Below are positions 5,321 to 34,700 of a DNA stretch of 34,985 bases, one piece after another. Under the pieces are notes generated by a model. It had not been told where the DNA came from. It did no database searches and was given only the letters and a program-made list of their open reading frames with translations. This stretch comes from Jimgerdemannia flammicorona (lineage: Eukaryota). Numbering within the stretch: the first letter of the stretch is position 1; each line of letters starts with the position of its first letter. The stretch spans positions 1 through 34,985 of the forward strand of contig RBNJ01000264.1 in the NCBI GenBank assembly GCA_003990765.1, read 5' to 3'. A program made the position numbers and the translations under genes.

Positions 5321-5375
<55 letters not shown>

Positions 5376-12707: not shown

Positions 12708-12743
12708 ATATATATTTCAGCTTAATATATATATATATATATA

Positions 12744-13207
12744 TATAATAACAAAGTAGTTATCTATGATAAAACTATATATATGTTGATAGATTTGGAT
12801 AATCTGAGTAGACTATCAGCTCTAATCTTGTGAGAAAGTATTAAGTTCCAATACTTGTTACTGAGATATAGTCCAAGTTATCACTTTTAGATTCTTATAC
12901 TGAGTAGAGATATCATACTTATATTCTAAGTTAATTAGACTCAGAATTATTAACAAGTCAGATCTGAGGATTCTTGATAAGAATATTTCTTTATTCTTGA
13001 AAGGAGAAAGTAGAGCTAAGATTATATATAATACTCAGTATAGATAGTATTTATATAGATTAAAGTTATGACTAAATATAGTATACTGAATATATCTATA
13101 TATAGTTATACTATATTATATATATATAACTATTATATTGGTTGATAATTTTATTAGAAATTTCATTAGAATTTTCAGTACTTATAATTATATAATAAAC
13201 TATTATA
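12744..13207 (-). repeat. Putative 3' LTR of element A (~460 bp)
   Basis: Termini TATAATA...TATTATA (mutated TG...CA inverted ends), abutting a purine tract on the minus strand at 13208-13221. Minus-strand TATATAAATA near 13050 and AATAAA near 12990. No second copy in the window. Confidence 0.55.
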
Positions 13208-13248
13208 TTTTTTTCTTTTTTATCTAAACCTACTTATTCAATTCTGTA

Positions 13249-13668
13249 CTAAACTCTAGATATTTGTTCAAACTAAAGAGCTATATATTAGATTATATAA
13301 AAGGTAATATTATTCTAATATTTATTAGTTAGATTAGTAATATTTTTAGAGAATATTCTACAGAGATAATTGAGAACTTGAGATTATATGCAGAAAAGAA
13401 TATATAGTCTCTTAATAATGATATAAGTATAGTTATCAATAAAAAGACAGGATAACTATTTGGCTTTATTGAGAGAAATCTGTTGATAAATGATTTATCT
13501 TATTTTATAATATTTCTTTAGTTCTTATTGATAGCAAAAGGTTTGAAAGTATTGGATTCTTTTAAGATATTATTGGACTTCATTTAGATCAGAGCTTTCA
13601 GAAATTTATATATTAATAGAGAGTAGTTTGATAGAGATCTATTAGTATTTAATAGCTATGAGAATAAC
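13249..13668 (-). pseudogene. Degenerate accessory ORF between chromodomain and PPT of element A
   Basis: 140 codons in one frame, interrupted only by TAA/TAG, which are revertible to CAA/CAG/TGG. Includes YYKIR*IIYQQIS...DNYTYIIIKRLYILFCI*SQVLNYLCRIFSKNITNLT. Start codon is not resolvable. Confidence 0.6.
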
Positions 13669-13819
13669 TATATATATATAGTAATCTTATTCTTAGTTTA
13701 TTTATAGTATTATTATTAACTATTCATATTATAGATAAGTTATCTATATATATATAATATTTGAAAGTATTTATATTTATATATTAAGAGAATATATGGC
13801 TGCTTTTTGAAAATTTCAT

Positions 13820-14900
13820 TATACTATATATTTATATTAGATTATTACTTTTTTTTATATTTAGTAGGAGATTATCCTCTTTTTTCTAAATAGTATTATA
13901 CTTAGGATAATTTTTCTATTTTATTAGATAGTGCTGAGTGAACTTGGCAGCTTATCTAAATTATTAGTTCTTATAATCTAAGATATAATTAACTTTATAT
14001 TCTGATTATTAATTAATAATAATTAGATCTAGAAATAATATAATTTTTCTATTGAAGATATTTGAAATATATAGCTGAAGTTGAGATATATAGAATACTA
14101 GATAGATTCATTTTAGAGTTATCAGAAGTTCTAATTTATATATATATAACAGATTTATATTTCTCTAAGATCTTAAATAGTTCAATATAGTAAAGTTTAA
14201 GTTTCTTCTTTAGACTTATATTATCTAGAGTCAAATATTAAGTACTGAGTAATATCTATTTATTTTTTTTATAAGAGACTTCTCTTTTATTTTTATTAGT
14301 ATATATAGCTTATATATATTCTTTATACTTCTATGAGAATATTATATACTTGCTAGATATCATCTTATATAATATTAGCAATTTTTTATATAACTGATAC
14401 TATAGCTCAGATAATAGTTATGAGAGTCTAAGAATATTATCTATGTAGTTTAAATAAAATAGAGTTATTTTAGTACTTATACTTATATTATTATTATATA
14501 GAAACTCAGTTAAGATTAGTTTTTTGTCTCAATTATTCTACTTATAGCTATAGTAGATAAATATTTTAAGTTATACTTCTAGACCTTTAAAGAGTATCTA
14601 TCAGAAATTACTTATAATTTTGTATCTCTATTAGAGATAATTATTGATAATAATCTATAGAGATGAAATATATATACTATTTCTAAAACTATTATAAAGT
14701 AGTTATTATAGAAAAATGAGTTTACTTACCAAGATGATCTATAAAAATAATAATTACATCTCTTCTCTTTTTGGTTTTTAGTAACTAAACAATAAAGTCT
14801 ATTCAGATATAGTCTTAGTTTCAGATAAGTATTTATAGTAGCTACAGTATTCTAGCTAGAGCTTAATTACTAGATTTATATCTTTGACAGATATTATAAG
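13820..14900 (-). pseudogene. Integrase plus chromodomain of element A (inactivated)
   Basis: Motifs as listed for element A, with many stops and some frameshifts. Confidence 0.8.
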
Positions 14901-15767
14901 ATATAATATGTAGTTATATTTACTAAGATTGAAAAAATATAGTTACTTTGTAACAAAATAAAGATATTGTCCTTCTTTAGTAACTATAGTTATAAAAGAT
15001 TTATACTTATTATATATAAAATAAATCTCTTATAATTCAGATTCAAAGAGAGTTTCTTTAGATTTATATACTAATTCTCAGTTCTGGTAGAAGTTAGCTA
15101 GACTTTTGGAATTTAGTCAGAAATACTAAAGTAACTTAGGTATCATTATTAAGAACTCAGAGAAATATATATAGAGGAGAGATTTCTTATATTTGGTACT
15201 TAACTAAGAGCTAGTTTATTTCAAATATAATTGCTAAAGTATTTATATATATTGACTAGATAATAGTTTATAGATTTTAGCTAAATATATATAATTAAAT
15301 TAATATATAACTACTCTATTTATTCTGTATACAAATATATTATTTATACTCAGAATAGTTTATACTCAGAATAGTCTGTTTGCTTGAGAAATAACTAACT
15401 ATTAATTAGATAATATATAGTTAAGTAATATATTTATATAGCTTTAGTATTTAGGAGTTTTGATATATCATTTTTTATATCTTTTACTTATCTCATTTAT
15501 CACTTATTTATATACTACTTATTTATAATATTATTGTTAGATTATGTAATTACCATTTATACCTCAGAATATAATTTTATTATATTTCTCTCTTAGAAAT
15601 TAATATTTATATTAATTTCTATTTTATCTATCTTAAAGTTGAGAATTAGAGAAATGATATTATCTTTATTCTCATTATTAGCATCTGTCTAACTAGTATA
15701 TGATTTAGTAGAAGTATTAATATGTAGTATAGAAAAATCAATAAGGTCTGTAAATAGTTCTTAGTAG

Positions 15768-17315
15768 TGTCATATAGTAGTTACTGAGTTCTTCAAATAT
15801 ATCAGATTCTCTTCAAGATGTATCTCTTAGACTAACTCAAGTTTGTTATAAGTAAGTTCTTATTAAAGTATCTTCCCAAGGTCTTATAGTCCTCAAACTT
15901 CTTATCTTTAAACTGTCTTGTTATTTCTTTAGATTGCTTATATGAAATTGAGGGTAAGTGAACTGGAACTGACTTTATTTTAAAGAAAATAAGAGATATT
16001 TATATAAAATATAATTCAATAGTTGCTAAGATATAAAGCTAAATATAAATTCTAATAACTAAATTAAATACTGGAACATAGAAAACTACAGTTATCAGTA
16101 TAGAATCTAGTATTAGTATAGATAGTTGTATAAGTTCAGAGTGCTGGTAGAATTCAGTAGTATAGGAAAAGAATGCTGGAAGAATTCTGAGTCACATAAG
16201 ATCAGAATACTAGTAGAAGGATTAACTATTATATAGAAAAAGGATACTGATAGAATTTGGTATCACTAAGAACTTTAAAGCAGAATGTTCAGAACTATAG
16301 GAGCTTCATCTTCATCATCACTGAAAGAGATGAGATCTGTGAATATTTTATCTATTTTGTGATATATATCACATAGGATGACATTATCACTGGTAATATC
16401 ATTATATTTGATGAGAGCTTTCCAATCTATGACATTCTCTTCCACAAAATAAGGAACAAATGTGGGATCTTGAAAAGGTCTAACCTAGATACTGGAGTCT
16501 TGGAATACTGAGATCAATCTTTGCAAGAACTGACCTGGGTTGTCCTGGAGGATGGAATTCTAGAACTCTTCTATTTTGTTACTATTGAGAGTGATAGTAG
16601 ACTAAACCTCTGTAGCTACTATAGATTCTAGTATATTGATATGATAGGCTGATAGATCTCTGAAGTCTGAGACTTTGGTATACTTTAAGTTGGTGATCAA
16701 CTATAATATATATATATCTGAAGATCTGATGAATCTTCTTGACTATCCTTATTTCATGTATATCTATGGGAGTGGTATCTTATAGCTCTTGAGGGCTGGC
16801 TTGAGGGAATTTCTGATAGAGGAGATTTCCTATTTCATATTTTTGTCACATCTGGAGACATTCAGTAGCAATAGTAGTTCTTATTTCCATCTTGTGACAG
16901 TAGAGAATATAATGATAAAGGTCATCAGTACTCAGATTAATACTAGGAGTTCTTGTAGTGTGGGTCTTTATGGCTCTTTGGATGTCTTGGAACATTCTTT
17001 CCTAGACTGAGAGGCCTTGGTGGTTTCTTGATCTTGAGGTTTGGTGAGCAGTAGGCATTTTGTTTATAATAAGTCTTTGAGCTATTTTGGGATTAGTGGG
17101 TCTTGTTGAGTTACTGCTACTGCAGTTTCTTAATTCTTCTTTTATATTCCTCAAGATGTCTGTATTGTGATCCCAATGACTTATAGTTGATCATTATTGC
17201 TCATCTTATAGTCTGGATAAGTTATACTATATGATCTTCTTGTGCTCTGATTTGGTAGCTTGTTAGGAATTGCTATCTTTTATACTGATATTATCATTCT
17301 GAGGTCATCATTACA
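15768..17315 (-). repeat. LTR copy 1 (1548 bp) of the B/C family
   Basis: Aligns by eye with 24955-26479 and 32170-33717. Confidence 0.9.
16275..17058 (-). pseudogene. LTR-internal accessory ORF, copy 1
   Basis: ATG CCT at 17058, YEIGNLLYQ motif, TAA at 16275-16277. Length is not a multiple of 3, so at least one frameshift is present. Confidence 0.6.
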
Positions 17316-19405
17316 TCTTCCTCTTGAATAAGGATCTTCTTGAATATTCTTATTCATTGGTCCAGTTCTGAAAAATTTGCTGATCCCATAACTTCTGACA
17401 GAGGGTCAAAAAGTGATATTTATAGGCTAGTATCTTTTCTATGTATTTTGGTGTGATGGTGAAGAGTTGCTTCCTTCATATAGAGTAAGGGCCTGATTCT
17501 GATATTGACTAATCAGTTGACAGTTTGAACTTCTCTGGCTTCAAAAGTCTTACAGATAAGTAGTTGCTGATGCTGTATCTCTTAGAGAATAATCCAGACA
17601 GATTGTCTGCTGATTATAGAACATATTGTTACAATTTGCAAACTAGAACCTCATAAGTAGTTATCATATTTTGCTTCTCTTATATAGATTTATGGTACTT
17701 CTTGAGTCTGTTCCTATATACTATGGTAGATAGTATAGTCTCTGAGAGTTTTCTAAGCCAGAAGGTAGTTCTCTTGATATCTTGCACATAGAAGAGTCCT
17801 TCTCATTTGGGCTCTAGTTTTCATGACTATAAGGCTTCTACTATATTTTGATATAGTAGGACCTTTTCTCCAATTTGGATGGGTTCTAGAGTCTTATAAT
17901 TCTTTTCTATATTCTTTTTTGTTAGTGCTTATATATAACTTGATGATATAATCTTCAGCCTTCTTCCTGATTTGGTATAGTCTCCAAATTTCTGAGTCAA
18001 CCTATCTCTAAGTTAGGTCTAGATTTATGGCTAAGGTTCCATCAGAATCTTCTTCTCCAAAGAACAGTTCTCTTGAAGTAAAGTATATACTCTGTGACCA
18101 TATATCTCATAGGACAGAGAGGATAGTTAGGAGGTAGTTATCCCAATTCTCATATATATATATTTGAGATCTTTACCAGGATGTTCTTAAGGGTCTTGTT
18201 AGTTCTCTCTATCTATCCATTTTCTTGAGGGTAGTATACAGTGGTCTTGATGTGCTGAATCTTGTATTTCTGATATATTATCTTATAGAATTTATTGACA
18301 AATTCTGTGCTGCAGTCTATGGTAATTTGCTTTGGTGTCTTGTAGTAGTAGATAATTTCTCAGTACAGGAAGTTGGCTATAGAGAGAGTATTGGCTTTTT
18401 GTAATACTTCTACTTCTATCTATTTAGTAAAGAGGTCTACAATAACTATAATATAGTAGTTTTCTGATAGTGTTACTGGTAGTGGTCCAATGATATCCAT
18501 TACAGTATAGTGGAAGGAGATAGGCTCAATTCTTAATAACCTGGATATCTGGTCTTACTGATATTATTTCTATTTTTAGCACTTATCATATCCTTTGACA
18601 AATTGGTACAGATCTTCTTCTATCTTGGGCCACCACATGGTTCTTCTTGCCTTATTATATGTATTGGTTTCTCCTAGGTATCCTTGTTCATGTACTTCCT
18701 TCATTACTTAATACTTTTTATATTTAGGTATTACAAGCTTTTCTCCTTTTCTGAGTATGATGTTGTCTAGTTCAAACTATTTCCAAGTCCAGTTGATGAT
18801 GGTGATTATCTAGGATTCAAGGTGGTTAGATATCTTTCACTGCTTAAATAGCCGATTAATTCATAGTATAACTCCTTATTCATATTGAATAGTCTTGATG
18901 GGGGTGTTTTGAGGTGTCCTTAAGAGTGTATCAGCATTAGTATTAGTTCTTCCTGGGTGCTACTTGAGAGTATAGTCATACTCTTGCAGCCTATAGATCT
19001 ATCTGGCATATATTTCTTTAGAGTTCAGAGTATAGAATAGCCAGGCAAGAGTGGAATGATCTGTTTGAATAGTGAAGTATTTTCTGACTAGGTAGTAGTA
19101 GAACTTGTCTACTGCCCAAACTGCTGCTAAATATTTGAGCTTGTATAACTTATAGTTCTGTTCTATTCTATAGATATCTTAGCTTACATAAGAGATAACA
19201 TATTCATGTCTATCTTTCTTCTAAGCTAGGACTGCTCCAAGTTCTATAGTACTTACATCTGTCTGCAAGATGAACTCTAGGTTCCAATCTGATCTTCTGA
19301 GGATGGGTGCTTGGGTCAACCTGGTCTTGAGTTCATTGAAGGTTTCTTGGTATTTCTTGGTCCATTCAAATTTGGTCTCCTTCTTCAGTAGCTCATAGAG
19401 GGGTA

Positions 19406-22400
19406 TTTTGTGAGAAGTGGGAAGAGGTCTGGACATTAGTGACTAAATATCTCCTTACTAAGTGAGGTATCCCTATGAGAGATATGAGTAATAGATATTA
19501 GTACTAGGATATATAGTTAGAGAGAAACAGGACTAGGGATTAGGAATTACTAGATATGATTTAAGTCTGAGATACAATAGTACTAGAGAGAGGCAGAAAG
19601 GATGTGGGGTACCTAGAAGAAGCAAATAAGGTGGGCCTCTCAGAGGTTGGTAAGAGTGTTGGCAACTTGGGCAGATCTGGCAAATGAGGGAGTGGAGGGG
19701 GATTGGTAGCTACAGTAGACCAGGCTAGAGATAGAGAAACTGAGGGGCATTCTGAGACAGAGAGAGGATCTACAAGTTAAGAGCATGGCTGCCAGGCTAC
19801 AGTAGCAGAGATTGGAGAAGAAAGAATGGTTTACTAAGTTTTTATCATAGCTGTTGCAGGTGAGGAAAGTCTGGCAGTAGTGGGAGAGAGTTCTGGATGA
19901 GGCTGGGGAGTTGGTTGTAGGGACACTAGAGATCCTGGACCAGTTGAGCAAGCAGTGGGGACATCTGTGGAGTAAGAAGAATGGTGGAGAGGGAGTATTG
20001 GATATTGACAGATACTTAGAGGAATGGTACTCTGATCTGGTAGCAGGTTTAGAAGATCTTGATGCTGCTGTCTAGAGAAAGGAGATTCAGCAAGTTTTGT
20101 AGATAACAAGCTCTGAAACTATACCTGGAGAGGATGGTTTATAGTGGAATTTCTGTAAGAAGATGATAGGAGTTGAGCTAGCTCTGGAGAAAATAATGAT
20201 AATATGTGATGAAGTAATAGGCTCTGGAGTATAGATTGGAGGGCAGAGCTTAGGCCTTATGGCTCTACTGTTTAAGTATAAGGAGAGAAGAAAGGAGTGA
20301 AAAAACTGGAGGCTAATCATACTTCTAGATATAGATTACAAATTGGTCATGAAGGTACTGATGGCTAGGCTGCAGAGAGTGGCTCAATAGATTCTATGGG
20401 CTGAGCAGAGAGGATTTATAGGGGGTTGCCTAATTAGAGATAGGACAGTCTGAGTATATAGTATTATTGAGGATATATATACTACTAGGGTAGATGGATG
20501 ACTGGTTTTCTTAGACCAGGAGAAGGCCTATGACAGAGTCCAGCAAGTATAGTTGAAAAGGGTACTAAAGTATATTAGAGTCTCTCATGGGGTCTAGTAG
20601 GCTATAGTCAGTCTGTTGGAGGGAAGTTGGGTAGTAATTATGGTAAATAGACATAGAGAGTATTCTTTTTCTCTGAGCAAAGAAGTGCTACAGAGAGATC
20701 CACTATTACCAATACTATATGCACTGTCTTTAGAGTTACTTCTAGATAGAATATAGTATAAGGTGAGAGGGTTGGACATACTAGGGGTTAATTAAAAGGT
20801 GGGGGCTTTTGCTAATAATATAGTGGTCAGGCTTAAGTCAGTTACAAATGTTATAGTACTAAAGAGTACAGTAGAGTGATATGAGGGGTGCTCTGATACT
20901 AAGCTCAACTAGTATAAGTATGAGATCTTAGTACTGGATAGAGAAATAGTGAGTGGGAATATAATTGGAATAATTGTCTCAGTAGGAGAGACTGTTTACT
21001 ATCTAGGAATTTACTTTTCAGTATATGACTTCTTATTACTATACAAGTAATAGGAGCAGAGATTGACTGAGTGGAGAAGTACCCTCTTGGGGTAGGGTAG
21101 TTAATATATTTCTCTGGCAGGAAGGATAATAATAATGAATATATACTAACTATCTAAGCTATAGTATTTAGGATATTACTTAGACTTTCTAGTATAGATG
21201 GTCAAGTAACTTCTAAAGATAGCCAGAACCTAGATATGGGTAGAGTGATAGAGTCAGATTAGTTGAGAGATATTGACTTAGTCAGTGGATAGGAGAGGTC
21301 TAAGGCTGGTGAATTTTCTCAAGTATCTTTACTGCTTGAGAGTATGGTGGCTGAAGTGAGTGAGTAAGTTGAGGGACAGAGAGTGAGTTCTCCTCATATA
21401 GGAGATATGGGAAGTCTGATTCTCTCCCCATGATGCAACCAGAGATCTTCTGTCTTTGGTGACTTTGAAGGATAGTCAGAGGATATTATATAGGAGATTC
21501 TGATGGAGAGTAATTGTTGGGATATATTATATTGATCTCTGATAAAGGAGAAATAAGAGAGAGAAGAAATAGAGACTCCAGATATAGAGGTAGAACTAAC
21601 TTCTATTGGGTGGAGTACTAGTGAATAATTTCTACTTAGAAGATAACATAGAGTGTCTTCAGGAATACAGGAGAGACTTGTGGCCAGAGGCATGACAGAG
21701 GGTAGAGATTGGTAAGAAGTGGGACTGAAATAGTATTTAGCAATGGGGTGAACAGATAGTAAGATAAATTCCCCCCAAGTTCTGAGTAGTATAGTAGAGA
21801 GTTTTATAGTATAATATTATATTAAACTACCAGATAGACTACTTGGTAGAAGAGAGTACTTAAGAGTGTGAGAAGTGTCTAAATATTGAGTAGGAGAGAG
21901 GAGTGGTATAGACTCCTGAACATTGACTGAGAGAGTATAAGGTAATGAGAGACTTTTGAAGAGAGATTGAGGTGCAGTTAGAGGTGCACTCACTAGAACT
22001 AATAGCAGGAGGGAGGTGGGGTGATCTTTGAAGGAGGCTGGTGGGGGGGTGGGAGATGAATAGCTAACATTAGGATAAGTGCTGGTAATTAGAGTTAATA
22101 TAGTGAGTCATTGGCTTTTGGTATTTGAGAAGAGTCAACAGCTATTATTGAGGAGAAGAGTGGCTAGATAGAAGTGGCTAATACTGAATATATTAAGTGG
22201 GTAGTAGAGGGGTGAGGGTATAGATAGAAGATATCACTAGTGGCTAGAGATAATCTATACAAAGAGTGAGAGAAGGATTGGGATGGTAAAGAGATGAGTA
22301 GTATTTTGGAATAATAGTAAGAGAGAGAGGGATTTTCCAAGTAAGATTGGGTGAGGAGTACATTTGTATTAGTAGTATATTATAGATAGTTTGATAATAA

Positions 22401-22441
22401 ATTAGAAGTCTACAAGACTATAAAAAAAAAAAAAAAAAAAA
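19406..22441 (+). mobile_element. Degenerate non-LTR retrotransposon (LINE, L1/Tx1-like), 5'-truncated ORF2
   Basis: Plus-strand RT motifs PGEDGL (~20124), KNWRLIILLDIDYKL, LDQEKAYDRV (~20511), VLQRDPLLP (QGDPLSP) and AFANN (FADD, ~20805). C-terminal CEKC...TPEH...(C) knuckle near 21870-21940, AATAAA at 22396-22401 and an A20 tail at 22422-22441. Confidence 0.9.
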
Positions 22442-22900
22442 TCCAGAAATGACAGTAATCTTATTCCTAAGAAATTATAAAATAGAGCTAAGCCAGATAT
22501 CTCACACCTATAGATATTTAGAAGTGAGACTTATATTCTAGATAAAAGTAGTAATAGAGATAAATTTGAATCTAAAGTAGATAAATATATACTTCTTAAA
22601 TATGATAGAGCAGTATATAGATTATGAAATCCATAAAAGTAATATATAGTTATCTCTTATAATATTCAATTTAAGGAGACTAAAGAGTAGAAAATTTATA
22701 TAGAAATTTCTATCTTGAACAATCTAATAATATAGCCAATAATATCTATATTAACTTCAAAGATATCTTTAGTATATATATTAGTATCAGTACAACTCAT
22801 ATATATATCAATAAGGCTATTAGAGCTAAAAATTACAGAAATTATAAATAAAAATGATAATGAGGATACTTCTCTAAAAGGTAAAAAAAATATATATATA
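22442..22900 (+). mobile_element. Ty1/Copia pol fragment (post-integrase region)
   Basis: IPKKL*NRAKPDISHL*IFRSETYI...RDKFESKVDKYILLKYD...YRL*NP...VISYNIQFKE, reverting to the Copia pattern TPxExWxGxKPDISHLRVFG...K..K...C.LLGY...YRLWNP...SRNV.F.E. Right boundary is approximate. Confidence 0.8.
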
Positions 22901-23616
22901 AATCTAGGCTATATAGTGAGATTGAAATATAGAAATATATAGAAAATAGTACTATATATATATCTAGAATATACTCCAACAGAGTATATAATAACAGATT
23001 TATTAACTAAAGTTCTTTCAAAGACAAAGTTTGACTTATATATACAAAAAATGAGACTTATAGATAACTCTATACCAATGAGTAATTCTATACAAGTAAG
23101 TAGCAATTATATTTTAGTAAATAGGAACTATTTACCAGTAAGTAACAAGTAATAGTAATAATGACAATATAGCAATAATAAGAAGTTTTTCAGAGTGCTA
23201 AAAAACATCTCACTATATCTTATATATATTCATTAACATTACTTATATTTCTTTATTTATAAATAGATCTAAATTATATTGAGAGTAATCTTTCATCAAT
23301 ATTACTCAGAATTACTAATCTTTTACTATATTTTTTATCTATTTTCATACTTATAAGTAGAAAATTTTGATCTTTTTTGGTCATATAGATAGTATCTAGT
23401 TGGTCATATCTAGTTAGTATTTTATTTGTATTCTGGGATATATATATTTTATTGAACAAGAGTGTGAAAATATCTTAATTATAGCAACTCAATATATAAT
23501 AGTACAGCCTGACTATATTATTATTATAAGATATATATTATCAATATATATATAAATATATAAGCTAGTAATAAAGAATACTACTATCTCTTCTTTCTTT
23601 TAAATATTTCATAACA

Positions 23617-23848
23617 GAATTGAATTAAGGGTCATTTGAATCAAATTGAGAGTTATTTAAATTGAATTGAGAGTTATTTGAATTGAATTGAGAGTTATTT
23701 GAATCAAATTAAGGGTCTAATTTGAACTCTATTTTCAAAAAAAAAGTTTAAATTAAATCTCAAATTGAATTAGACCTTTGATTTAATTTGATTGAATTAA
23801 ATCAAATTTGAATCAAATTCAATTTAATTTGAATTATTGAGAGCACTA
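23617..23848. mobile_element. Decayed hAT/MITE-like terminus with subterminal repeats (21-bp tandem units)
   Basis: About 4 copies of ATTTGAATTGAATTGAGAGTT, then inverted copies, ending in GAGCACTA at 23841-23848. This is the CpG-decayed equivalent of TTCGAATCG arrays (compare 209-344). Confidence 0.55.
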
Positions 23849-23876
23849 TACTCAGTAAGCCATAGAAAGATAATAG

Positions 23877-24330
23877 TATTCTACTGAGCTGCAAGCTATA
23901 GAGGAATTCTTTGACAGTATTCAAAGTATTATATAGACTCATCTATTACAAATTTTATACTTTAGAGTCTACCAATATTATGCTAAGTTTCAAAAGTACT
24001 TCAAGTTGGAAAAATTACTAAATAAAAAAGACATGACTAAAGAAGAATAAATTGCAAAGTACCAGATATTTTACACTCAGATTACTATAGCTAAGTAAGT
24101 CTATAAACTATTTAAAAATAATAAGTAAGCTTTAGTCTATTTCTAAAGAGAATATAATTGAGCAGATTATATAATATAAGAATATACAATTGATCAAAAT
24201 ATAGAAGTTTAAATAAGATGATTCAGAAGTGAAATAACTTATTTAAAAAAAAGTTATAATAATTGATCTAAATTAAAAATAACAATCAAAAGATAGATAT
24301 TGATTGTAGTATCTAAATCTAATTTTTAAT
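23877..24330 (+). pseudogene. Degenerate ORF resembling the accessory ORFs of elements A/B/C
   Basis: One frame: ...QKYFKLEKLL...YTQITIAK*VYKLFKNNK*ALVYF*REYN*ADY. Stops are revertible by transitions. The host element is not identified. Confidence 0.4.
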
Positions 24331-24954
24331 ATAGTATAACATTATAGTTTAGCAGTTACTTAATCTCTCAGTTATATAATTTGTATAATTATATAAAAAG
24401 TATAGATATATAGATATATTGATCTCTCAACTATATGAAATAACTTATAGAAAAAGAAGTTTTAACTTAACTACTATATAGCTAGTAAACCTATATAAAT
24501 ATATATCTTTAGTATATATTGTAATATAGTGGACATATGTATAACTAGAGAAATGCAGCAGATTTCTATAACTCTTCTTGACTTCTCAGAGTCATAAGTA
24601 ATATTTATCTAATCTCATTATCAGACTATCAGAGTGAGGTTCAAACTTTTTAACCTAAGGTTTATTCACTTTAGATACTGAAATATTTATATAAGTTTGC
24701 TAGCTATAAAGTAGCTAAGTTATGACTATATTTCTTATGAGTCACTTTTTATAAGTATAGATTCTCTATATCTGTAAAATCTCTATATTTGTAAAGTTTC
24801 TACATTTGTGAAATAATTGTAATCATATATCTATTTCCTATTTCTATTTTATACTATATATTACATCTTTCTCCTAAATAGATTATTTTTGATGTAAAAA
24901 TACCTATTCAAATTTCTACATCTCAATATTTATATATTTGTTCTCTCTATATAG

Positions 24955-26479
24955 TATCATATAGTGATTGCTGAGTCCTTCAAATATATCAGATTCTCTT
25001 CAAAGTATATCTCTTAGACTAACTCAAGTTTATTATAAGTAAGTTCTTATTAGAGTATCTTCCTAAGATCTTATAGTTCTCAAACTTCTTATCTTTAAAC
25101 TGTCTAATTATCTCTTAGATTGCTTATGTGAAATTGAGGATAAGTAAACTTGACTGACTTTATTTTGAAGGAAATAAGAGAGGTATTTATATAAAATATA
25201 ATTCAATAATTGCTAAGATATAAAGCTAAATATAAATTCCAATAACCAAATAAAATACTGGAACATAGAAAACTACCAAGTTCTAGTATTAGTACAGATA
25301 GTTGCACAAGTTCAGGATACTGGTATAATTTTGGTGATATAGGAAAAGAGTGCTGGAATAATTCTGAGTCATATAAGGTCAGAATGCTAGTAGAGGAATA
25401 GCTATTATACAGAAAAAGAATGCTGGTATAATTTAGTATATATAACTAAGGGACTTAGAGTAAAATGTTCAAGACCATAGGAGCTTCATCCTTATTATTG
25501 CTAAAGGAGATGAGATCTGCAAACATTTCAGTCTCATTATATAGATTGCACATTTTACATATATTGCACAGGATGACATCATCACTGATGACATCATCAT
25601 ATTTGACAGTAGCAGGGAGAGTGAGGAGATCTGAGACTCTTCAGTCTATAAGGTTCTTTTCCACAAAATAGAGAATAAATATAGAGTCTTGGGGAGGTCT
25701 GATCTAAATGCTGGGATCTTAGAATGTGGAGATCAATCTTTGCAGGAATTGATCTGGGTTGTCCTGGAGAATAGGATATCAGAACTCTTCTATCTCATCA
25801 CTATTGAGGGTAATAGTAGACTGGGCTTTTGTTACCACTCTGGCTTCTAGTATATTGATATAGCAGACTAACAGATCTCTAAAGTCTGTGACTCTAGTAT
25901 ACTCTAAGTTGGGGATCAATCATAGTGCATACCTGAAGATCTGATGAATCTTCTTAGCTATCCTTATTTTATATATATCTATAGGAGTGGTATCTTGTAA
26001 CTCTTGAGGGCTGGTCTGTAGGAACTCTTGATAGAGAAGATTTTCTATTTTATACTCCTGCCACATTTGGAGGTATTCAGTAGCAATGGTAATCCTTATT
26101 TCTATTTCACAGTAGTAGAGAATATAATAATAAGAATCTCTAATATCTAGGTTGAGACTAGGAGTTCTTCTTGTGTAAGTTCTCATAGCTCTTCTGATAT
26201 CTTGAAACATCCTTTCTTCAACTGAGAGGTCTTAGTGGTTCCTTGATCTTGAGGTTTAGTAAGCAGCAGGTATTTTGTTTATAGTAAGTTTTTGAGTTAT
26301 TTTGAGATTGGTGGGTCTTATTGAGTTACTGCTACTATGGTTCCTTGATCCTTCTTTTATATTCCTCAAGATGCCTATACTATGGTCATAATGACTTACA
26401 GTTGGTCATCATTACTCATCTCATAGTCTGGGTGAGTCATACTATATGATCTTCTTGTACTCTGATCATCACTGTTACA
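24955..26479 (-). repeat. 3' LTR of element C (1525 bp)
   Basis: TATCATA...TGTTACA, adjacent to the PPT. Has a ~45-bp deletion near 26465 relative to the other two copies. Confidence 0.9.
25455..26273 (-). pseudogene. LTR-internal accessory ORF, copy 2 (273 codons)
   Basis: Start mutated to ATA at 26273. The supplied ORF 25920..26210 is part of this frame. TAA at 25455-25457. Confidence 0.7.
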
Positions 26480-26489
26480 TCTTTCTCCT

Positions 26490-29400
26490 AAATAAGAATC
26501 TTCTTAAATATCCTTATTCATTAGTCCAGTTCTGAAAAATTTACTGATCCCATAACCTCTGGCAGGAGGTTGAAAAGTGGTATTTATGGGCTGACATCTT
26601 CTCTATATATTTTGATATAATGGTGAAGGATCACTCTCTTTATATAGAGCAAGGGTCTAATTCTGATCTTGATCAATCAGTTGATGGTTCAAACTCCTCT
26701 GGCTTCGAAAGTCTTATAGATAAATAGTTGCTGGTGCCATATCTCTTAAAGAATAGTCCAGACAGATTGCCTGCTAGTTATGGAATATGCTGTTATGATT
26801 TGCAGACTAGAACCTCATGGGCAGTCATTATATTTTACTTCTCTTATATAGGTTTATGGTACTTCTTGAGTCTGTTTCTGTATACTGTGGTAGGCAGTAT
26901 AGTCTCTATAAGTTTTTTTAGCCAGAAGATAGTTCTTTTGATATCTTATACATAGAAGAGTCCTTCTCATTTAGGCTCCAGTTTTTGCAACCATGAGGCT
27001 TCTACTATATTTTAATATAGTAGGACCTTTTTTCTGATTTATATAGATTCTAGAGTCTTGTAATTCTTTTCTGCATTCTTTCTCATCAGCACTATAACTT
27101 GATGATGTAATCTTCAGCCTTCTTCCTGATTTGGTATAGTCTTTGGATTTCTGAGTCAACCTGTCTCTAAGTTAGGTCTAGATTTGTAGCTGAGGTTCCA
27201 TCAGAATCTTCTTCTCTAAAGAGCAGTTCTCTTGGAGTAAAGTGTATACTCTGTGATCATATGTCTTATAGGATAGAGAGGATAGTTGGGAGGTAGTTAT
27301 CCTAATTTTTATATGTGTCTGAGATCTTCACTAGGATGTTCTTGAGAGTCTTATTAATTCTCTCTATCTGTTCATTTCCTTGAGAGTGGTATACAGTGGT
27401 CTTGATGTGCTGAATCTTATATTTCTAATATATTATCTCATAAAATCTATTGACAAATTCTGTGCTGTAGTCTGTAGTGATTTGCTTTGGTATCTTGTAG
27501 CAGCAGATGATTTCTCAGTATAAGAAGTCAGTTATGGAGAGGACATTGGCTTCTTGTAATATTCCTGCTTCTATCTATTTGGTAAAGAGGTCTACAATAA
27601 CTATAATATAGTGATTTTCTGATAGTATTACTAGTAGTAGTCCAATGATATCCATTGTGATGTGGTGGAAGGAGATAGGCTCAATTCTTAATGACCTGGG
27701 TATCTGGTCTTGCTGATCTTATTTCTGTTTTTAGTACTTATCACACTCTTTGACAAATTAGCACAGGTTTTCTTCTATCTTGGGCCACCATATAGTTCTT
27801 CTTGCCTTATTATATATATTGATTCCTCCTAGGTATCTTTGTTCATGTACTTCCTTCATTACTTGATACTTCTTGTGTTTGGATATTACAAGCTTTTCTC
27901 TTTTTCTGAGTATAGTATTGTCTAGTTCAAACTATTTCTAAGTCTGGTTGATGATGGTGATTGTCCAGGGTTTAAGGTGGTTAGACATCTTCTACTGCCC
28001 AAGATAGCTGATTAATCTATAGTATAACTCCTTATTCATATTGAATAGCCTTAATGAGGGTATTTTAGGGTGTCCTTAAAAGTACATCAGTATTGGTATT
28101 GGTTCTTCCTGGGTGGTACTTGATAGTACAGTCATACTCTTGCAGTCTATAAATCTATCTGGTATATATTTCTTTGAGGTTCAGAGTGTAGAATAGCCAG
28201 ATAAGAGCAGAATGATCTGTTTGAATAGTGAAGTATTTCTCAGCTAGGTAGTAGTGGAACTTATCTACTGTCCAAACTACTACTAAGTATTTAAGCTTAT
28301 ATGACTTGTAGTTCTGTTCTGCTCTATAGATACCTCAGCTTATATAGGAGATGACATATTCATATTCATCTTTCTTCTGAGCTAGGACTGCTCTAAGTCC
28401 TATAGTACTTATATCTATCTACAAGATGAACTCTAGGTTCCAATCTGGTCTTCTGAGGATGAGTGCTTGGGTCAACCTGGTCTTGAGTTCATTGAAGGTT
28501 TTTTAGCATTTTTTGGTCCATTTGAATTTGGTCTCCTTCTTCAGTAGCTCATAGATAGATGCTGCAATATTGGAGTATCCTTTGATGAATCTTTTGTAGT
28601 AGGAGGTCAGTTCAAGAAAGGCATGGACTTTCATAGTTATTCTGGGTCTTAGGTAGGCTACAACAGCCTCAATCTTTGTGGATTCTGGTCTGGTTGATGA
28701 GGTATCCTAGGTAGGTAATTTCCTGAGCTACAAACTTATACTTCTTAGACTTGATGTAGAGGCCATACTTCTTGAGCTTCTTGAGGGCCAGCTATATATA
28801 GTTGATATGTTCTCATATAGTATTGCTGAAGATAATCACATCATCAATATAGACAAAGAGCCATTTTTCAATTTCATTACTGAAGACTCTGTTCATCATT
28901 CGCTGAAAACTTGCTAAGGCATTATACATTCCAAATGGCATTTGCAGATAGATATAGGTAGTATTAGATATAATGAAGGCTGATTTCTCACTGGCATCTT
29001 GAGTGAGACCAATCTGATAAAAGTCTGAGAACAGATCCAAGGTGGTGTAGTATTTGGCTTTACTTCCAAGAGTGGTAAGAATTTCTTGAATATTAGGTAA
29101 GGGCTGTCTATTCTTCTTGGTGATTGTATTGAGCTTTCTGTAGTCAATATAGAGTCTTGGGGCAAACTCTCCAGGCTTGTTTCCTTTCTTTGGAGCAAGG
29201 ACAATGGGTGAAGCCCAGAGACTGATAGCTTGCTTGATGATTCCAGCTTCTTTTATTTCCTTGAGTTCTGCTTGCAGCTATTCTCTATAGACAAGTGGTA
29301 TAGGTCTGGTTTTCTGATAGATGGGCTTGATATTACTGGTGTCAACTTCATTGTAGTACTTGGGTTCTTAATTGTAGATATCTCTGAAGTCTGTAGCAAG

Positions 29401-32100
29401 TACTTCTTCATTCTGGTATAGAATCTTAAGAAGTTGTTCTTCCAGGAGAAAGTTTTTTCCAATGGTATATGTGTGCTTATTCTGATTCTTGTCTTTCTTG
29501 TACTCAAGTTTGGTAATCTTGGTGGTAGCATAGGCTCCTCTTCCAGTAGATCCAAAGCCTTGTTCTCCTCTCTTGGTCTTAATGAGTTTAATGGCTTCAG
29601 TAATCTTGGGCTTCTTGATTTCATGGATCAGCATCTGGTCAATCCTGTCATACTTCTTGACTTCAAATGGGGTGGTGGGGTTGTGATTCCTGACTATGAG
29701 GAAGATCTCATCAGTATAATCAGATTCAATTACTCCTCCTTTAGCTGAGATTTTGCTTTTGGCCAGACTGCTCCTATCTTAATAATTCCAGTATAGATCT
29801 CTGGCAACTTGACTCCAATTTCAGTACCAAGTAGAGTGGTAGTCTGTAGTTCAAGGATAACATCTTAAATGCTAGCAAGGTCCATTTCTATGACTCCTTC
29901 AGTCTTATATTCTAGGATCTTAGCTTCAGGATAAAACTTCTTAACCTTGAGAGTGATGTCTAGTTCTTGTTCCTCCTCATCATCACTGTTAGCTTGAAGC
30001 TCTGGGGGCTGGTCATCTTCTTTGGCTTTCCTTTTTGCTTTAGCAGCTTCTTGCTTATACTTCTATTGGCAGATTTTCCTGACTTCACTGATATAGGACC
30101 AGCAGTCATTCAGGTGTTCAGAGTAGTATCCTAGTACCATGGGGGCATCTTTCTTGAGGAGTATAGCCATTGATGATCTTATTGTACCACTGCTCATCTG
30201 TGAGCTTGGGTGTCTTATTCTTGTTTTTATTCACCAAGTACATGAAGACTTCTGTGTTCTCTTCATCTCCTTTCTTCATATCTAGTAGAACTTCTTTGTG
30301 GACATTGATAGAGACTTGTACCTTTCTTCCTCTATAATTAATCTACATCTTCTGAAAATTGAGGTCAATGATGGTCTTGGCCTTATGAAGCCATTAGTTA
30401 CTGGTGAGGATGTCATAGTTAGTGGTACTTGTAATAATCACATCTACTGGAATGGTAGCTCCTCTTATCTTGATGAAGACTTCTTGGATTTTACTAAGGG
30501 GAGTAGCTTGTGTACCATCTGCTGTAATATAGACCATCTTGGTAGACTCTTCAATGTCTCAACCTAGGCAGTCAATTGCCTTCTTGCTTATGAGGCATCC
30601 TCCAGCACTAGTATCAATGATGACATCAAAGATACAATCTTCAATCTGATATAGAGTATAGGCTGATGTTTTGCACTGGTCTTCAGGTTTTTCACCTGAG
30701 TCTTCTTGATTATCTTTTTGTATATTGTGAGCTTCTATAATCTTATAATCTTGATTCTTGGCAGTAGTTGCAAGTCTTACTCTCAACTGTTATCTAAAGA
30801 TAGGGACTTTGGCTAGTTATCCAAAAGTAGCATTGACCTTCTGTTCCTTGAGGTCCTTATAGATATCATACTGGTAGATCTTAGTCTTGTACAACTTCTA
30901 TTCCTTCTTGCTTTTACTTTCTTCTAAGACTAGAGTAGTACCTTCAATAATTTGACAGGCAGCTTTATCTAACTCTATATCTTGATCAATCTCCTTAAGT
31001 TGGGTCTTACTTTAGATAGTGATAGCTGGAGTCTTCTTCAGTCTTCCAACTGGCTTACTGTTGTTCTTCTTGTCATAGAACTTGGACTGGGTTCTGGTAC
31101 CTTCAGTAGTAGAGTAGAATTTAAGCTCTTTATAGTATTCTTCATCATCAGTATCATCAATCTCCTTGATAACTACTATATTAGTTTGTTCTTTGGTTCT
31201 GGTAGTATTACTTAGTTGGACTTTACATCTTATTTTAGTTATATAACTCTTTGTATAGTAGCCTTCTTCTTCATATATAAAGTATGTAATATTGCTTTCT
31301 TCTATAGCAGCTGCAAATCTCTATACTGGTCTTCTGTTGGTACTTCAGACTTCTCTAACAATATCACTAAGGTATGCAGTCATCTTAGCAAACTATGTAC
31401 TTGGTGAGTTCCTCCACTAGGTTAGCTTTGGCTGCCTTGGGGATAAGTGGGAATATTTGTCTGTTTACAACTATAGTAGGTATGATACTAGTTGGCTTTG
31501 ATGGCTCCATCTTGATGCTAGTTATTTTCTCTATTGAGTGTTTGGCAGAATATCAGACAGTCCAATATCTCTATGCAAAGACCACTTTCTGATCAAGAGT
31601 CAGTGCAGCTAGGGTAGATTAGATTGCTAGAGCAATTTCAGAGTAAACTCCTTTAAAGAAGGTTGAATCTGCTATTTGTTTCTTGAGGTGGTCATCATAG
31701 TCAGCCAAGATAATCTGGTGGCAGATTTAGGTATAGAATGAGTTGGGATCTTCACTAAGTTCCTGGCAGATAGTGTTGAGTTGATCCTTGAGAGCTTGCT
31801 TGATTACTTCAGTATAATATATAGTTCTAATGAAGGTCTTCATGTTGACAAGTCTGGCTACACTAGCATCACAATGATGACTATATTGAACTTATCTCTA
31901 GCAGGTCCTCTGAGGCTGACTGATAGAAGGGCCAATTGTACATCTACATTGAGGGCTTGTATAGTGGCAAATTGTTCAAAGTTTTCAATAAAGGTCAGGA
32001 TTGACTCTTCAGTAGTATATCCATAGAATGTAGGGGGATGTATTTCTATCTTATCTTGAATTCTTATAAGAGTAACTCTTGTAGTCAGAGTAGTTGTTAT
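26490..32100 (-). pseudogene. gag-pol polyprotein of element C (many stops, a few frameshifts)
   Basis: Approximate domain order: gag 32100-30800, PR 30680-30300, dUTPase 29957-29542, RT 29400-28500, RNase H 28480-28060, IN 27900-26850. Confidence 0.88.
29542..29957 (-). pseudogene. Trimeric-type dUTPase domain within pol
   Basis: All five motifs are recognisable: (AG)MDL, RSSLA, GVIESDYT(G)EI, DRI(A)Q and RGEQGFGSTG. One 1-nt frameshift near 29778. Confidence 0.9.
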
Positions 32101-32373
32101 GGTGGTTGTTCATTTTTTAGTTTAAAAGTAAGGAATTCATCTTGAATTACCAATCAATGGATACCAAGTTATTACATAGTAGTCACTAAGTTCTTCAAAT
32201 ATGTCAGATTCTCTTCAAAGTATATCTCTTAGACTAACTCAAGTTTGTTATAAGTAAGTTCTTATTAGAGTATCTTCCCAAGGTCTTATAGTCCTCAAAC
32301 TTCTTATCTTTAAACTGTCTTATTATCTCTTAGATTTCTTATAAGGAATTGAGAGTAAGTAAACTTAACTGAC

Positions 32374-32408
32374 TTTATTTTGAAGGAAATAAGAGAGGTA
32401 TTTATATA
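32374..32408 (-). promoter_or_regulatory. LTR core promoter / poly(A) signal (TATATAAATA at 32408-32399, AATAAA at 32379-32374)
   Basis: Motifs are conserved in all three LTR copies, ~210-240 bp from the LTR 3' end. This places the LTR ORF in U3. Confidence 0.55.
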
Positions 32409-32663
32409 AAATATAATTCAATGATTGCTAAGATATAAAGCTAAATATAAATTTCAATAACCAAATAAAATACTGAAATATAGAAAACTGTTAAGTTCCA
32501 GTATTGACACAGATGGTTGTATAGGTTCAGAATACTGGTATAATTTCAGTAATACAGAAAAAGAGTGCTAATAATTCTGAGTCACATAAGGTCAGAATGC
32601 CAGTAGAGGAATAGCTGTTATATAGGAAAAGAATGCTGGCATAATTCAGTATAACTAAGAAAC

Positions 32664-33461
32664 TTAGTGCAGAATATTCAGAACCATGAGAGCTTTATCT
32701 TCATTAGAGGTCAGAATGTCTTTGAAGGAGATAAGATCAGTTTTGTCATATATTTTACATATGTCACATAAGATGATATTATTGCTGATGATGTTATCAT
32801 ATTTAGTAGTGGGGAAATCAGAGGCTCTCCAATCTATAAAGTTCTCTTCTACAAAATAGAGAACAAATATGAGATCTTAGAGAGGTCTGACCTAGATACT
32901 GAGGTCTTGGAATATGAAGATCAATCCTTATAGAAATTGATCTGAGTTGTTCTGGAGGATGAGATATCAGAACTCTTCTACCTCATCACTATCAAGAGTA
33001 ATAGTGGACTGGGCTTCTGTTGCCACTCTGGCTTCTAGTACATTAATATGATAGACTGACAGATCTCTGAAGTTTATGACTCTAGTATACTCTAAGTTGG
33101 AGATTAATCATAATATATGCCTGAAGATCTGATAAATCTTCTTAGCTGTCCTTATTTCATATATATTCATAGAAGTAGTATCTTGTAACTCTTAAGGACT
33201 GGTCTGTGAGAACTCCCAGTAGAGAAGGTTTCTTATTTCATACTTCTGCTATATTTGGAGATATTTAATAGCAATAGTGATCCTTGGTTCCATTTCATAA
33301 CAGTAGAGGATAAAGTGATAAGGATCTCTAGTACCCAGGTTGAGATTAGGAGTCCTTCTTATACAGGTCCTCATGGCTCTTCTAATATCTTAGAACATCC
33401 TTTCTTTGACTGAGATACCTTAGTAGTTTCTTAACCTTGAGGTTTGGCAAGCAGCAGGCAT
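32664..33461 (-). pseudogene. LTR-internal accessory ORF, copy 3 (266 codons, no frameshift)
   Basis: Runs ATG CCT GCT GCT to ...AAT ATT CTG CAC TAA over 798 nt. Every internal stop is TAA/TAG/TGA, revertible by a single transition, and most are sense codons in another copy. TATAAAAG lies upstream at 33549-33542. Confidence 0.75.
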
Positions 33462-33721
33462 TTCATTTGTAGTAAGTCTTTGAGCTATCTTGGAATTAGT
33501 GGGTCTTGTTGAGTTGCTGCTACTGTGGTTCCTTGATCCTTCTTTTATATTTCTCAAGATACCTATACTGTGGTCACAATGACTCATAGTTGATTATTAT
33601 TACTTATCTATAGTCTGGATAAGTCATACCATATAATCTTCTTGTGCTCTGATCTGGTGACTTATAAGAAATTACTATCTCTTATGCTGATGTCATTATT
33701 CTGAGGTCACTATTACAACAG

Positions 33722-33911
33722 ATAGAGTAGAGAGAGAATTGGGATAGCTGGAAGAATAGTAGTATTCTAGAGAAATAGAGAGAAGAAGAGAAGAGACCTC
33801 TCAGAAGATTGAGTGAGGGGAGTCTATATTGATATAATATAAATTGGTAATCAGATAATAAAGTGGAAGTCTAAGTAACTATAAAAAAAAAAATAATAAT
33901 AATAAAAAAAA
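33722..33911 (+). mobile_element. Short 3' fragment of a LINE related to 19406-22441, with a degenerate A tail
   Basis: GATAATAAAGTGGAAGTCTAAGTAACTATAAAAAAA versus GATAATAAATTAGAAGTCTACAAGACTATAAAAAAA at 22393-22441. Upstream ATTGGGAT...AGTAGTATT also match. Confidence 0.75.
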
Positions 33912-34700
33912 AGAGATCTACTTTAATATATACTAATAAAAAGATAATTAAGAAATTATAAGATTTTAGAGACTGAATGAGATAGTTGAAAGACTGAAGT
34001 CTAGAGGTTAGTGAGTTTATTAGTATTATTTTATAAAGTAATATATTTGACAAGACTATATTTTATAGTAGTCTAAAATACTATAAATATTAGAATAATT
34101 ATTCATAATTATAAGAATAAATTTGAAATCTTTAATTCTGCCAAAATGTAAATAGATATAATAATTATCAGCACAATATAGAATATTACAAATTGAGTGA
34201 AAATTATTAAAAAATATACTTAAATAAATAAATAAATAAATAAATAAGATATTAAATCAATTATTAAAAAGAAGTCTTATATATATAAATCTACAACTAT
34301 TTTATTTTGAGTACATATAAGTCTATTTATTTGAATATATTTGAATATATATAAGTTATAAGCTAAAGCTATTAAAGTTGAATTTCTAAAAAAAATCTTA
34401 GTTCAAACTATATAAAATAAATCAAATTAAATTTTACTTTGTTTAATATAATAATAATAATAATATATTAAATATTTTAATTTTAATTTTTATATTAAAT
34501 AATTATTATAAATTTTATACAATATTATAAAATATATTATTTCCATTTTAGAAATTATAACTAATAGCCAAAATTTAACTCAACTTTATAAAAAATTCCT
34601 CTGAATTTATAACATTATTAAATAAATAAGTAAATATTTCTATAAAACCCATTTTTTATTTTTTATTTTTTATTTTTTTTATGGTGTTCTATACTTTTTA
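33912..34700. other. Extremely AT-rich, CpG-free, unassigned decayed repeat sequence, including (TAAA)n near 34221-34246
   Basis: Composition matches the mutated TE block and no diagnostic motif was recognised. CpG reappears at ~34763. Confidence 0.4.

Follow-up and report, generated by a model that had tools for sequence, protein, structure and literature searches.

The extra open reading frames (ORFs) of long terminal repeat (LTR) retrotransposons are known but mostly unexplained, and in fungi they have barely been described. Among retroviruses, sag of the mouse mammary tumour virus (MMTV), nef of the human immunodeficiency virus (HIV) and tas/bel of the foamy viruses overlap or lie in the U3 region. 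The foamy-virus Tas protein, with ~300 residues, combines a DNA-binding part with an acidic activation part and is served by its own internal promoter. Extra ORFs are also widespread in the Ty3/gypsy elements of plants, where they occupy the interval from pol to the 3' LTR or precede gag, and have no known function. Here we examine an ORF situated within the LTRs of a dUTPase-type Ty3/gypsy family, represented by two elements termed B and C, in a stretch of 34,985 nucleotides from Jimgerdemannia flammicorona (contig RBNJ01000264.1, positions 1 to 34,985 of the forward strand; hereafter the window).

The part of the study by Rodriguez, Kenefick and Arkhipova (2017, PMC5408684) on which we draw describes LTR retrotransposons of bdelloid rotifers whose ORF3s are common to diverse retroelement types, and reads this as modular gene sharing. 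In fungi, the relevant portion of Novikova et al. (2010, PMC2864245) places a dUTPase between the protease (PR) and reverse transcriptase (RT) of PosPlaTy3-5 from Postia placenta, reports dUTPase-bearing elements in Phanerochaete and Tuber as well, and, in a figure legend on element structure, names a further ORF in fungal Ty3/gypsy elements, whose function is not known. Our search of open-access texts returned none describing an ORF inside a fungal LTR. An initial reading of the window (hereafter the original prediction) had proposed that a single uncharacterised accessory protein family is shared by unrelated retroelements, namely B/C, a "chromovirus A" and the carrier of a third ORF.

The ORF within the LTRs of elements B and C

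A repeat of ~1.55 kb is present in three copies on the minus strand (17315-15768, 26479-24955 and 33717-32170), all beginning with TGTAA, which are the 3' LTR of element B and the 3' and 5' LTRs of element C, respectively. All three enclose an ORF of ~265 codons at offsets 257-1052 of the 1548-nt LTR. Its copies and the accompanying signals are listed below, with independent E-values (i-E) against a profile of four close environmental proteins.

32664..33461, minus strand: LTR ORF in the 5' LTR of C, with ATG at 33461, TAA at 32666-32664 and internal stops (i-E 2.1e-93)
25455..26273, minus strand: LTR ORF in the 3' LTR of C, start mutated to ATA (i-E 3.7e-102)
16275..17058, minus strand: LTR ORF in the 3' LTR of B, with ATG at 17058, matched in two pieces (i-E 7.8e-41 and 3.1e-55)
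33544..33549, minus strand: TATAAA upstream of the ORF, at LTR offset ~170, 87 nt before the ATG
32374..32406, minus strand: TATAAA (offset 1312) and AATAAA (offset 1337-1339), ~260 nt past the ORF stop

The copy in the 3' LTR of C has 7 stops among the 316 codons read from 26405, and that of B has a 4-base insertion and a frameshift near 16712. In each copy a single minus-strand frame of the LTR is poor in stops (30-34, as against 36-50 in the other frames), and this frame aligns codon for codon among the copies. The relatives described below begin with M-P-x-x-R, corresponding to LTR offset 257, where B and the 5' LTR of C have ATG and the 3' LTR of C has ATA; the stop of the ORF falls at offset 1039-1052. 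The ORF part of the LTR is 77-81% alike among the copies, compared to 86-90% in the following ~500 nt, and its differences are nearly all transitions (166 among the 909 compared columns of C's two LTRs); the lower identity is probably a consequence of more C/G targets in the coding part.

The upstream TATAAA is kept in all three LTR copies, at offset 170 in B, at 169 in the 5' LTR of C, and at 119 plus a 51-nt deletion, lying shortly past the start of the LTR, in the 3' LTR of C. In the metagenome contig L001, which carries an intact copy of the gene, TATAAAAG is found 80 nt ahead of the ATG. Furthermore, L001 and the window copies have in common ~22 conserved bases immediately ahead of the ATG, despite a one-base indel that shifts the frame. 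As this conservation survives the frame difference, it suggests an untranslated leader rather than coding sequence. Downstream of the ORF, a TATAAA followed by an AATAAA 25 nt later also recurs in all three copies, and from its position we infer that this pair is the putative promoter and poly(A) signal of the element itself. With the pair read in this manner, the ORF lies upstream of it and hence probably in U3, as the original prediction had placed it.

The carrier elements were delimited by a three-way alignment of the LTRs and by Pfam searches with the translations of element C, stops being entered as X. Their features are as follows.

24955..33717, minus strand: element C, full-length dead Ty3/gypsy element, with its 5' LTR at 33717-32170 and its 3' LTR at 26479-24955
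30645-30346, minus strand: RVP_2 of C
29775-29542, minus strand: dUTPase of C (PF00692, E 4.6e-13), between RVP_2 and RVT_1
29190-28702, minus strand: RVT_1 of C (E 2.6e-26)
28520-28134, minus strand: RT_RNaseH_2 of C (E 2.2e-24)
27880-27386, minus strand: Integrase_H2C2/rve of C, rve alone being under its curated cut-off (22.3 vs 32.6 bits)
26489-26480, minus strand: polypurine tract AGGAGAAAGA of C, from the LTR alignment
15768..19200, minus strand: element B, a 5'-truncated copy of C's family, with its 3' LTR at 17315-15768, integrase (IN) and part of the ribonuclease H (RNaseH)
17316..17325, minus strand: polypurine tract AAGAGGAAGA of B, directly before the LTR start TGTAAT

Element C is a full-length dUTPase-type Ty3/gypsy element, typed as such because it possesses a pair of LTRs (1548 and 1525 bp, 81-90% identical), the domain order PR-dUTPase-RT-RNaseH-IN on the minus strand, a polypurine tract, and a TGG-starting, primer-binding-like stretch past its 5' LTR (~32166). 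Element B belongs to the same family but is truncated at its 5' end, as established by the repeat families D1-D9, the LTR alignment, an integrase profile match at 18914-17635 and an RNaseH segment match reaching 19200. The position of the dUTPase domain bears out the carrier type originally assigned to B/C. No target-site duplication was seen for C, as its 5-bp flanks mismatch even when transitions are allowed, the 3' end of the LTR being placed only approximately. Pfam detected no Chromo domain in C, and the family is devoid of a chromodomain, since an intact integrase that is 73% identical to that of C (P0014) ends ~40 residues past the GPY/F module. The integrase query for relatives returned only three proteins, the mutated query sharing few exact words with its targets.

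A transposon nest hit by transition hypermutation fills the right-hand two thirds of the window, as indicated by the loss of CpG, the low G+C and the dominance of transitions among LTR differences: positions 1-12500 have a G+C content of ~50% and an observed/expected CpG ratio of 1.06, whereas from ~12900 onward G+C is 19-42%, the CpG ratio is 0.00-0.01 in four separate transposon stretches, and 425 of the 535 single-copy differences among the three LTR copies are transitions. The premise of transition mutation on which the original prediction was built is thus well founded. In the oldest stretch (13000-15700), CpA (0.61) and TpG (0.52) are depleted and CpT (1.72) and ApG (1.92) are enriched. 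The hypermutation prefers CpG first, in which it differs from classical repeat-induced point mutation (RIP), which prefers CpA.

An orphan protein family from environmental assemblies

A search of 5.8 billion proteins with the ORF from the 3' LTR of C (stops as X) recovered four intact proteins with 53-65% identity and E-values of 1e-47 to 1e-89. At E<=1e-3, an exhaustive profile search of 1.84 billion representatives retrieved no more than six clusters, of which P0011 (E 1.6e-10) and P0012 (E 4.1e-5) are distant; the relatives from this search have 138-342 residues and none is fused to pol. A further search added one more protein. Eleven intact environmental proteins are known in all, in addition to the ORF of the contig L001; the members used to define the family are P0002-P0005, P0008-P0013 and the L001 ORF. 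All protein relatives stem from environmental assemblies, on contigs of <=2.4 kb. L001, the only match among metagenome contigs, is 1535 nt in length, nearly that of the 1548-nt window LTR, and its copy of 291 codons is intact and normal in G+C and CpG. A 33-nt direct repeat (170-202 and 1481-1513; 82% identical, 1311 nt apart) brackets this intact ORF. No relative was found among the IMG/VR viral contigs. The family is known only from the window, the eleven environmental proteins and this one environmental contig. Since the frames stay open across 20-80% divergence among the members, the LTR ORF is best read as a real gene under selection.

The copies in B and C match the family profile with E-values of 1e-41 to 1e-102. 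Three N-terminal blocks, Y-E-I-G-x-x-L, A-K-K-I-H-Q-x-F-R-H-x-P and V-x-D-x-x-x-L-S, occur at fixed spacing, and two tail motifs, DLIxF and DEAPxxLNFLL, are conserved in the B/C copies and their relatives, P0012 being without the tail. The raw strings cited in the original prediction are all present, on the minus strand IKRLYILF (13416), YKIR (13509), YEIG (16839), AKKIHQIF (25958) and YEIR (33242 and 33161), and on the plus strand AK*VYKLF (24090). In an AF2 model built on a 10-sequence alignment, a helical domain, with a predicted local confidence (pLDDT) of 81-95 at residues 61-160, is followed by a short beta region and then by a disordered tail. The protein is accordingly modelled as soluble and as having three parts, namely a helical N-terminal domain (~15-160), a small region of beta structure, and a tail that is disordered and strongly acidic. 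The proteins are acidic overall, and the net charge of the last third ranges from -10 to -21 in all six that were measured. The maximum 19-residue Kyte-Doolittle mean is 0.55-1.05 in the same number of proteins (six of six), pointing to no membrane-like segment, although no dedicated signal-peptide predictor was run; this agrees with the earlier opinion that the protein does not look like env.

No Pfam family was matched by the LTR-ORF protein, and the PDB sequences gave no match at E<=1. The best Foldseek match of the AF2 model in the PDB had an E-value of 0.7, and that in a viral fold library 0.2. Exhaustive structural alignment against 48161 chains gave a best Z of 3.9, against the 14 that chance commonly yields for helical models; helix-turn-helix (HTH) chains (ParB/KorB/SopB/VirB, sigma-4, TetR and MarR) appeared at Z 2.7-3.9, inside this chance range. 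The best score in the ESM Atlas, 0.88, was with an unnamed cluster. Hence, the description of the family as uncharacterised holds at the level of Pfam, PDB sequences, PDB folds and viral folds, and the structural comparison that had been proposed for it yields a helical model with no characterised fold matched.

We consider it probable that B/C is a dead dUTPase-type Ty3/gypsy family with a complete gene of this orphan family in each of its 1.55-kb LTRs. Sequence comparisons show that the gene exists, that it stays open in diverged relatives, that it sits in the LTR, and that it has a distant relative at the A locus.

Distant relatives in the transposon nest and their carriers

The candidate relatives elsewhere in the nest, together with the polymerase and integrase remnants near them, are the following.

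13234..13590, minus strand: A ORF, remnant of the N-terminal helical domain (profile columns 35-158), in DNA of 19% G+C
15602..15766, minus strand: tail remnant Z, with DLIxF and LxLNF motifs (profile columns 225-277)
23985..24146, plus strand: third ORF, motif-level resemblance only (columns 57-112)
22487..22687, plus strand: pol remnant, retroviral-polymerase SH3-like domain (PF25597, E 6.2e-13, 48.9 bits vs a cut-off of 27)
14722..14997, minus strand: weak integrase-like stretch upstream of the A ORF, on its strand

A distant homology that ordinary profile searches barely register in transition-hypermutated DNA can be tested by a mutation-aware score with composition-matched controls. Our transition-aware score is the log-odds of a window codon given a profile column, with C to T and G to A allowed at probability p, in local alignment; the controls were codon shuffles of the same stretch and all other stretches and frames of the window, and no reverted sequence was built. 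With the profile of four close proteins, A scores 18.5-19.2 bits, compared with noise of 17.6-19.7, so that no direct tie to B/C can be made. With a nine-member profile its score rises from 29.0 bits without transitions (p=0) to 35.8 bits with p=0.3 (window mean ~13, best unrelated stretch 19-25.5), none of 1500 codon shuffles reaches it, and the Gumbel p is 4.6e-5 to 8.8e-7. A profile of the five distant sequences alone gives 32.3-38.9 bits (Gumbel p 2.7e-6 to 5.1e-8; 0 of 400 shuffles), and A is the first of 1206 windows in all four whole-window scans. Plain HMMER on raw translations gives E-values of 0.019 and 0.0069 (468 windows), and an i-E of 0.047 on whole frames. As a yardstick, P0012 alone scores 30-40 bits with the B/C copies and 24-27 with A, ending at the same column, 132. 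The alignment of A is colinear over columns 35-158 (~105-120 codons) with one 1-residue gap, which upholds the claim of equal motif spacing in A and B/C; an acidic C-terminal tail was not found after the domain. Corrected for ~700-1200 windows, the probability of a chance match is ~1e-2 to 1e-4, depending on the profile. The membership originally claimed for A therefore stands with profiles that include distant members and fails with the close one, and we conclude that A preserves the N-terminal domain of a deep-lying third family branch.

Z begins 2 nt past the end of B's LTR and shows both C-terminal motifs in the right order and spacing. HMMER assigns it an E-value of 0.0014 among 468 windows with a profile of P0009, P0010 and L001, and of 1.9 with the close profile. 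Because Z starts where B's LTR ends, B inserted into another member of the ORF family; the upstream, N-terminal part of that member was not found in the window. The recognisable family remnants in the window number five, namely the three B/C copies, the N-terminal domain at A and the tail Z.

The third ORF fares differently. It scores 20-21 bits over 45-54 codons, a level reached by 23 and 42 of 1500 shuffles; it comes 3rd of 702 windows in one scan, and only two of the four scans of 1206 windows place it within their top 7 (5th and 7th). HMMER with P0012 alone gives an E-value of 1.9, the profile of four close proteins leaves it within noise in both plain and transition-aware form, and the other frames contain no colinear or frameshifted extension. 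Once the search space is counted, its resemblance to the family does not exceed chance, and its membership is not established. The PF25597 domain lies on the same strand ~1.3 kb ahead of it; ~300 nt on (22487-23110, plus strand) follows, by eye, an apparent copia-like pol C-terminus with the motif ..PTE..ADLLTK.., and we take both domain and motif to be copia-type. Pfam found no RVT_2 after the domain, and the short distance of ~300 nt between the two parts suggests that RT/RNaseH was internally deleted. This pol remnant begins right after the poly(A) of the neighbouring element, and the copia-like stretch contains 4-5 tandem copies of a 21-nt unit (23617-23726). The third ORF lies ~0.9 kb downstream of the remnant's end, a placement that fits the original prediction but cannot rescue the chance-level score.

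The weakest part of the finding is the notion of unrelated carriers. The designation of A as a chromovirus was not supported: across all six frames of 12500-15801, where 19% G+C could hide a true domain, Pfam matched nothing at E<=1, and no chromodomain was seen, the transition-aware score being applied without a chromodomain profile. The integrase-like stretch upstream of A scores 25.3 bits with a three-protein profile in the transition-aware mode, a value attained by 2 of 500 shuffles and compared with 22.6 for the best control elsewhere, with a zinc-finger C..C read as C..Y, two D of the DDE triad and a W read as a stop. This is suggestive at best of a gypsy-type integrase; if the match is real, the A ORF would lie a few hundred bases past it, in a layout similar to that of B/C. 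Single-sequence profiles of C's PR, dUTPase, RT, RNaseH and IN gave only noise (<=19.7 bits) in 12500-15767 and 22450-24954. By ungapped 150-nt purine/pyrimidine identity, for which B and C LTRs give 1.0 as positive control, 12500-15767 holds no direct repeat that could be an LTR pair around A, and it shares no repeat with 22450-24954 or 33911-34985 (maximum 0.68-0.71, null 0.69-0.71). On the same collapsed alphabet, blastn returned thousands of matches with meaningless E-values and was discarded, and gapped Smith-Waterman scores equalled the shuffled null, leaving no power. The A ORF exists in a single copy with no LTR pair detected, and the earlier statement that it lies before the polypurine tract finds no corroboration.

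Only B/C has thus been typed as a carrier, and divergence within one clade explains B/C, A and Z as well as an exchanged module does. We regard it as almost an even proposition that this is one old accessory gene of a single gypsy clade, LTR-borne in B/C, A and the tail alike and diverged together with its carriers, the apparent differences in carrier type and ORF position being an artefact of one extremely mutated copy. The sole pol signal at A, the weak gypsy-type integrase match ~1.1 kb upstream on the same strand, accords with such a history, as do the similar layout of B/C, whose ORF starts ~530 nt past the end of IN, the lack of any detectable chromodomain or other Pfam domain at A, and the 20-80% divergence of the members, which is expected from long vertical descent. 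It fits less well that A stands at least as far from B/C as from the most distant of the environmental members; moreover, with no detectable LTR pair around A, its placement in an LTR cannot be demonstrated, and the third ORF, if real, would have a copia-type carrier.

It is far less probable that B/C alone carries the gene, with the matches at A and in the tail arising by chance in A+T-rich DNA with translations rich in K, I, N, Y and L. The close-family profile does miss A, the raw HMMER E-values are modest (0.007-0.02 for A, 0.0014 for the tail), and the A locus had been picked by the same motifs that the profile rewards; however, composition-preserving shuffles never attain its score, it leads every scan with sequences that the earlier reader had not seen, its alignment is colinear with one gap, and the tail has both of its motifs in the proper arrangement. 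About as improbable is that a host gene, captured or overlapping, accounts for the ORF, or that it encodes a retroelement protein of a known kind (gag, env or ORF1-like) that has diverged very far, for even though extra ORFs are often captured genes according to the part of PMC5408684 used here, and a diverged helical capsid-like domain would be compatible with the fold searches, the 1.84 billion representatives hold no relative of another kind, Pfam, PDB sequences, PDB folds and viral folds give no match, the family profile matches nothing else in the window, C's own gag region included, and a membrane segment is lacking.

The other contents of the window can be described briefly. A non-LTR-type retroelement at 19200-22449 (plus strand) has RVT_1 at 20289-21011 (E 3.6e-11) and ends in a 20-base A run (22430-22449); its last ~68 bases recur with an A-rich tail at 33843-33910 (plus strand), just past element C. 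The G+C skew is strongly positive (0.35-0.42) over 19-23 kb. To the left of the nest lie two probable host genes: a 548-codon ORF at 9828-11474 (minus strand), whose resemblance to membrane proteins of the fungal FUSC_2/BRE4 type (Atlas score 0.89) is no more than a lead and gives the only hint in the window of a fungal host, and an ORF at 1923-2399 (minus strand) with a sub-threshold FAD-oxidoreductase (DAO) match (26.1 bits vs a cut-off of 27.9). A Pfam scan of the plus frames of 1-12500 gave no match, the minus frames not having been scanned whole. Simple repeats include 10 copies of the 11-nt unit GATTCGAATCC in a tandem array at the left edge of the window (209-316), an (ATT)18 tract at 5322-5375, and a 17-nt tandem array at the border of the nest (12637-12707).

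Possible role of the gene and comparison with known systems

Returning to the reading of the ORF as an LTR-borne gene, its arrangement allows a mechanism to be proposed. The gene would lie in U3 with its own TATA box ~85 nt ahead of the ATG and would share the poly(A) signal of the LTR, and any LTR, even a solo one, would on this view form a transcription unit of its own, a 3' copy of the ORF being carried on the genomic RNA as well. The protein could be a nuclear trans-acting regulator, comprised of a helical nucleic-acid- or chromatin-binding domain and an acidic effector tail, which might raise the transcription driven by its element's LTR or weaken silencing by the host. By analogy with the retroviral accessory genes that overlap U3, we put this forward tentatively as the most likely mechanism, while holding it to be less likely than not. 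The roles suggested in the original prediction, a helical DNA-binding transactivator or an anti-silencing factor, would be compatible with the model. A bolder version, in which a self-contained LTR gene for a fold-level orphan regulator, Tas-like or a silencing suppressor, was passed between unrelated retroelement lineages, namely a dUTPase gypsy, a second gypsy-like lineage and possibly a copia lineage, we hold to be distinctly improbable. Were it true, the solo LTRs dispersed through a fungal genome would continue to produce a regulator of transposon origin.

Several points weigh against this interpretation of the gene and its product: 1) TATAAA and AATAAA are short A+T words within A+T-rich DNA. 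2) MAFFT set the TATA boxes of L001 and of the window in different columns. 3) No RNA run was found in a search for sequencing runs, in which one soil-metagenome run matched 0.08 of the words and is not taken as evidence, and all window copies are dead. 4) A is at noise level with profiles of either four or six close proteins, its match needing the distant members. 5) The contigs of the relatives are too short to show an LTR location. 6) Protein databases usually mask transposons, so that rarity in them says little about abundance. 7) The fold search, with its best Z of 3.9, lends no support to DNA binding. 8) The AF2 model rests on 10 sequences and has a mean pLDDT of 66.

What remains is a real accessory gene, uncharacterised and borne by LTRs, of which a single transposon nest preserves at least two lineages separated by deep divergence. 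A gene inside an LTR is doubled in full elements and left in every solo LTR, and could consequently act after the element itself has died. Because the family stays open across such a range of divergence and yet is without a known match, it offers a clean target for studying what retrotransposons need beyond gag and pol, be it transcriptional activation, escape from silencing or targeting.

With respect to the systems introduced at the outset, the extra ORFs of plant Ty3/gypsy elements are set apart by their description, as they sit outside the LTR, unlike that of B/C. The likeness to sag, nef and tas is one of layout only: in each case a small non-structural protein is encoded at the 3' end and reaches into U3. 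In contrast to them, B/C has the whole gene and its putative promoter inside the LTR of a retrotransposon without env, and no similarity was detected in sequence or in fold, the best E in the viral fold library being 0.2.

Like the fungal elements in the portion of PMC2864245 noted above, B/C has a dUTPase between PR and RT. As far as the cited part of PMC5408684 goes, the bdelloid ORF3s resemble the present ORF in being neither gag nor pol and in lying toward the 3' side, and some bdelloid lineages also possess a dUTPase. ORF3s are shared among different lineages, whereas sharing between unrelated carriers is not established here. In that same part, the ORF3s are recognisable as a GDSL lipase, a DEDDy exonuclease or a paramyxovirus-type fusion protein, and belong to animals; here, on the other hand, the protein is without known family or fold, the gene is inside the LTR, and the host is probably fungal. 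The protein family itself, and the presence of an entire gene within an LTR whose element is probably fungal, are what this locus newly adds to the systems described so far.

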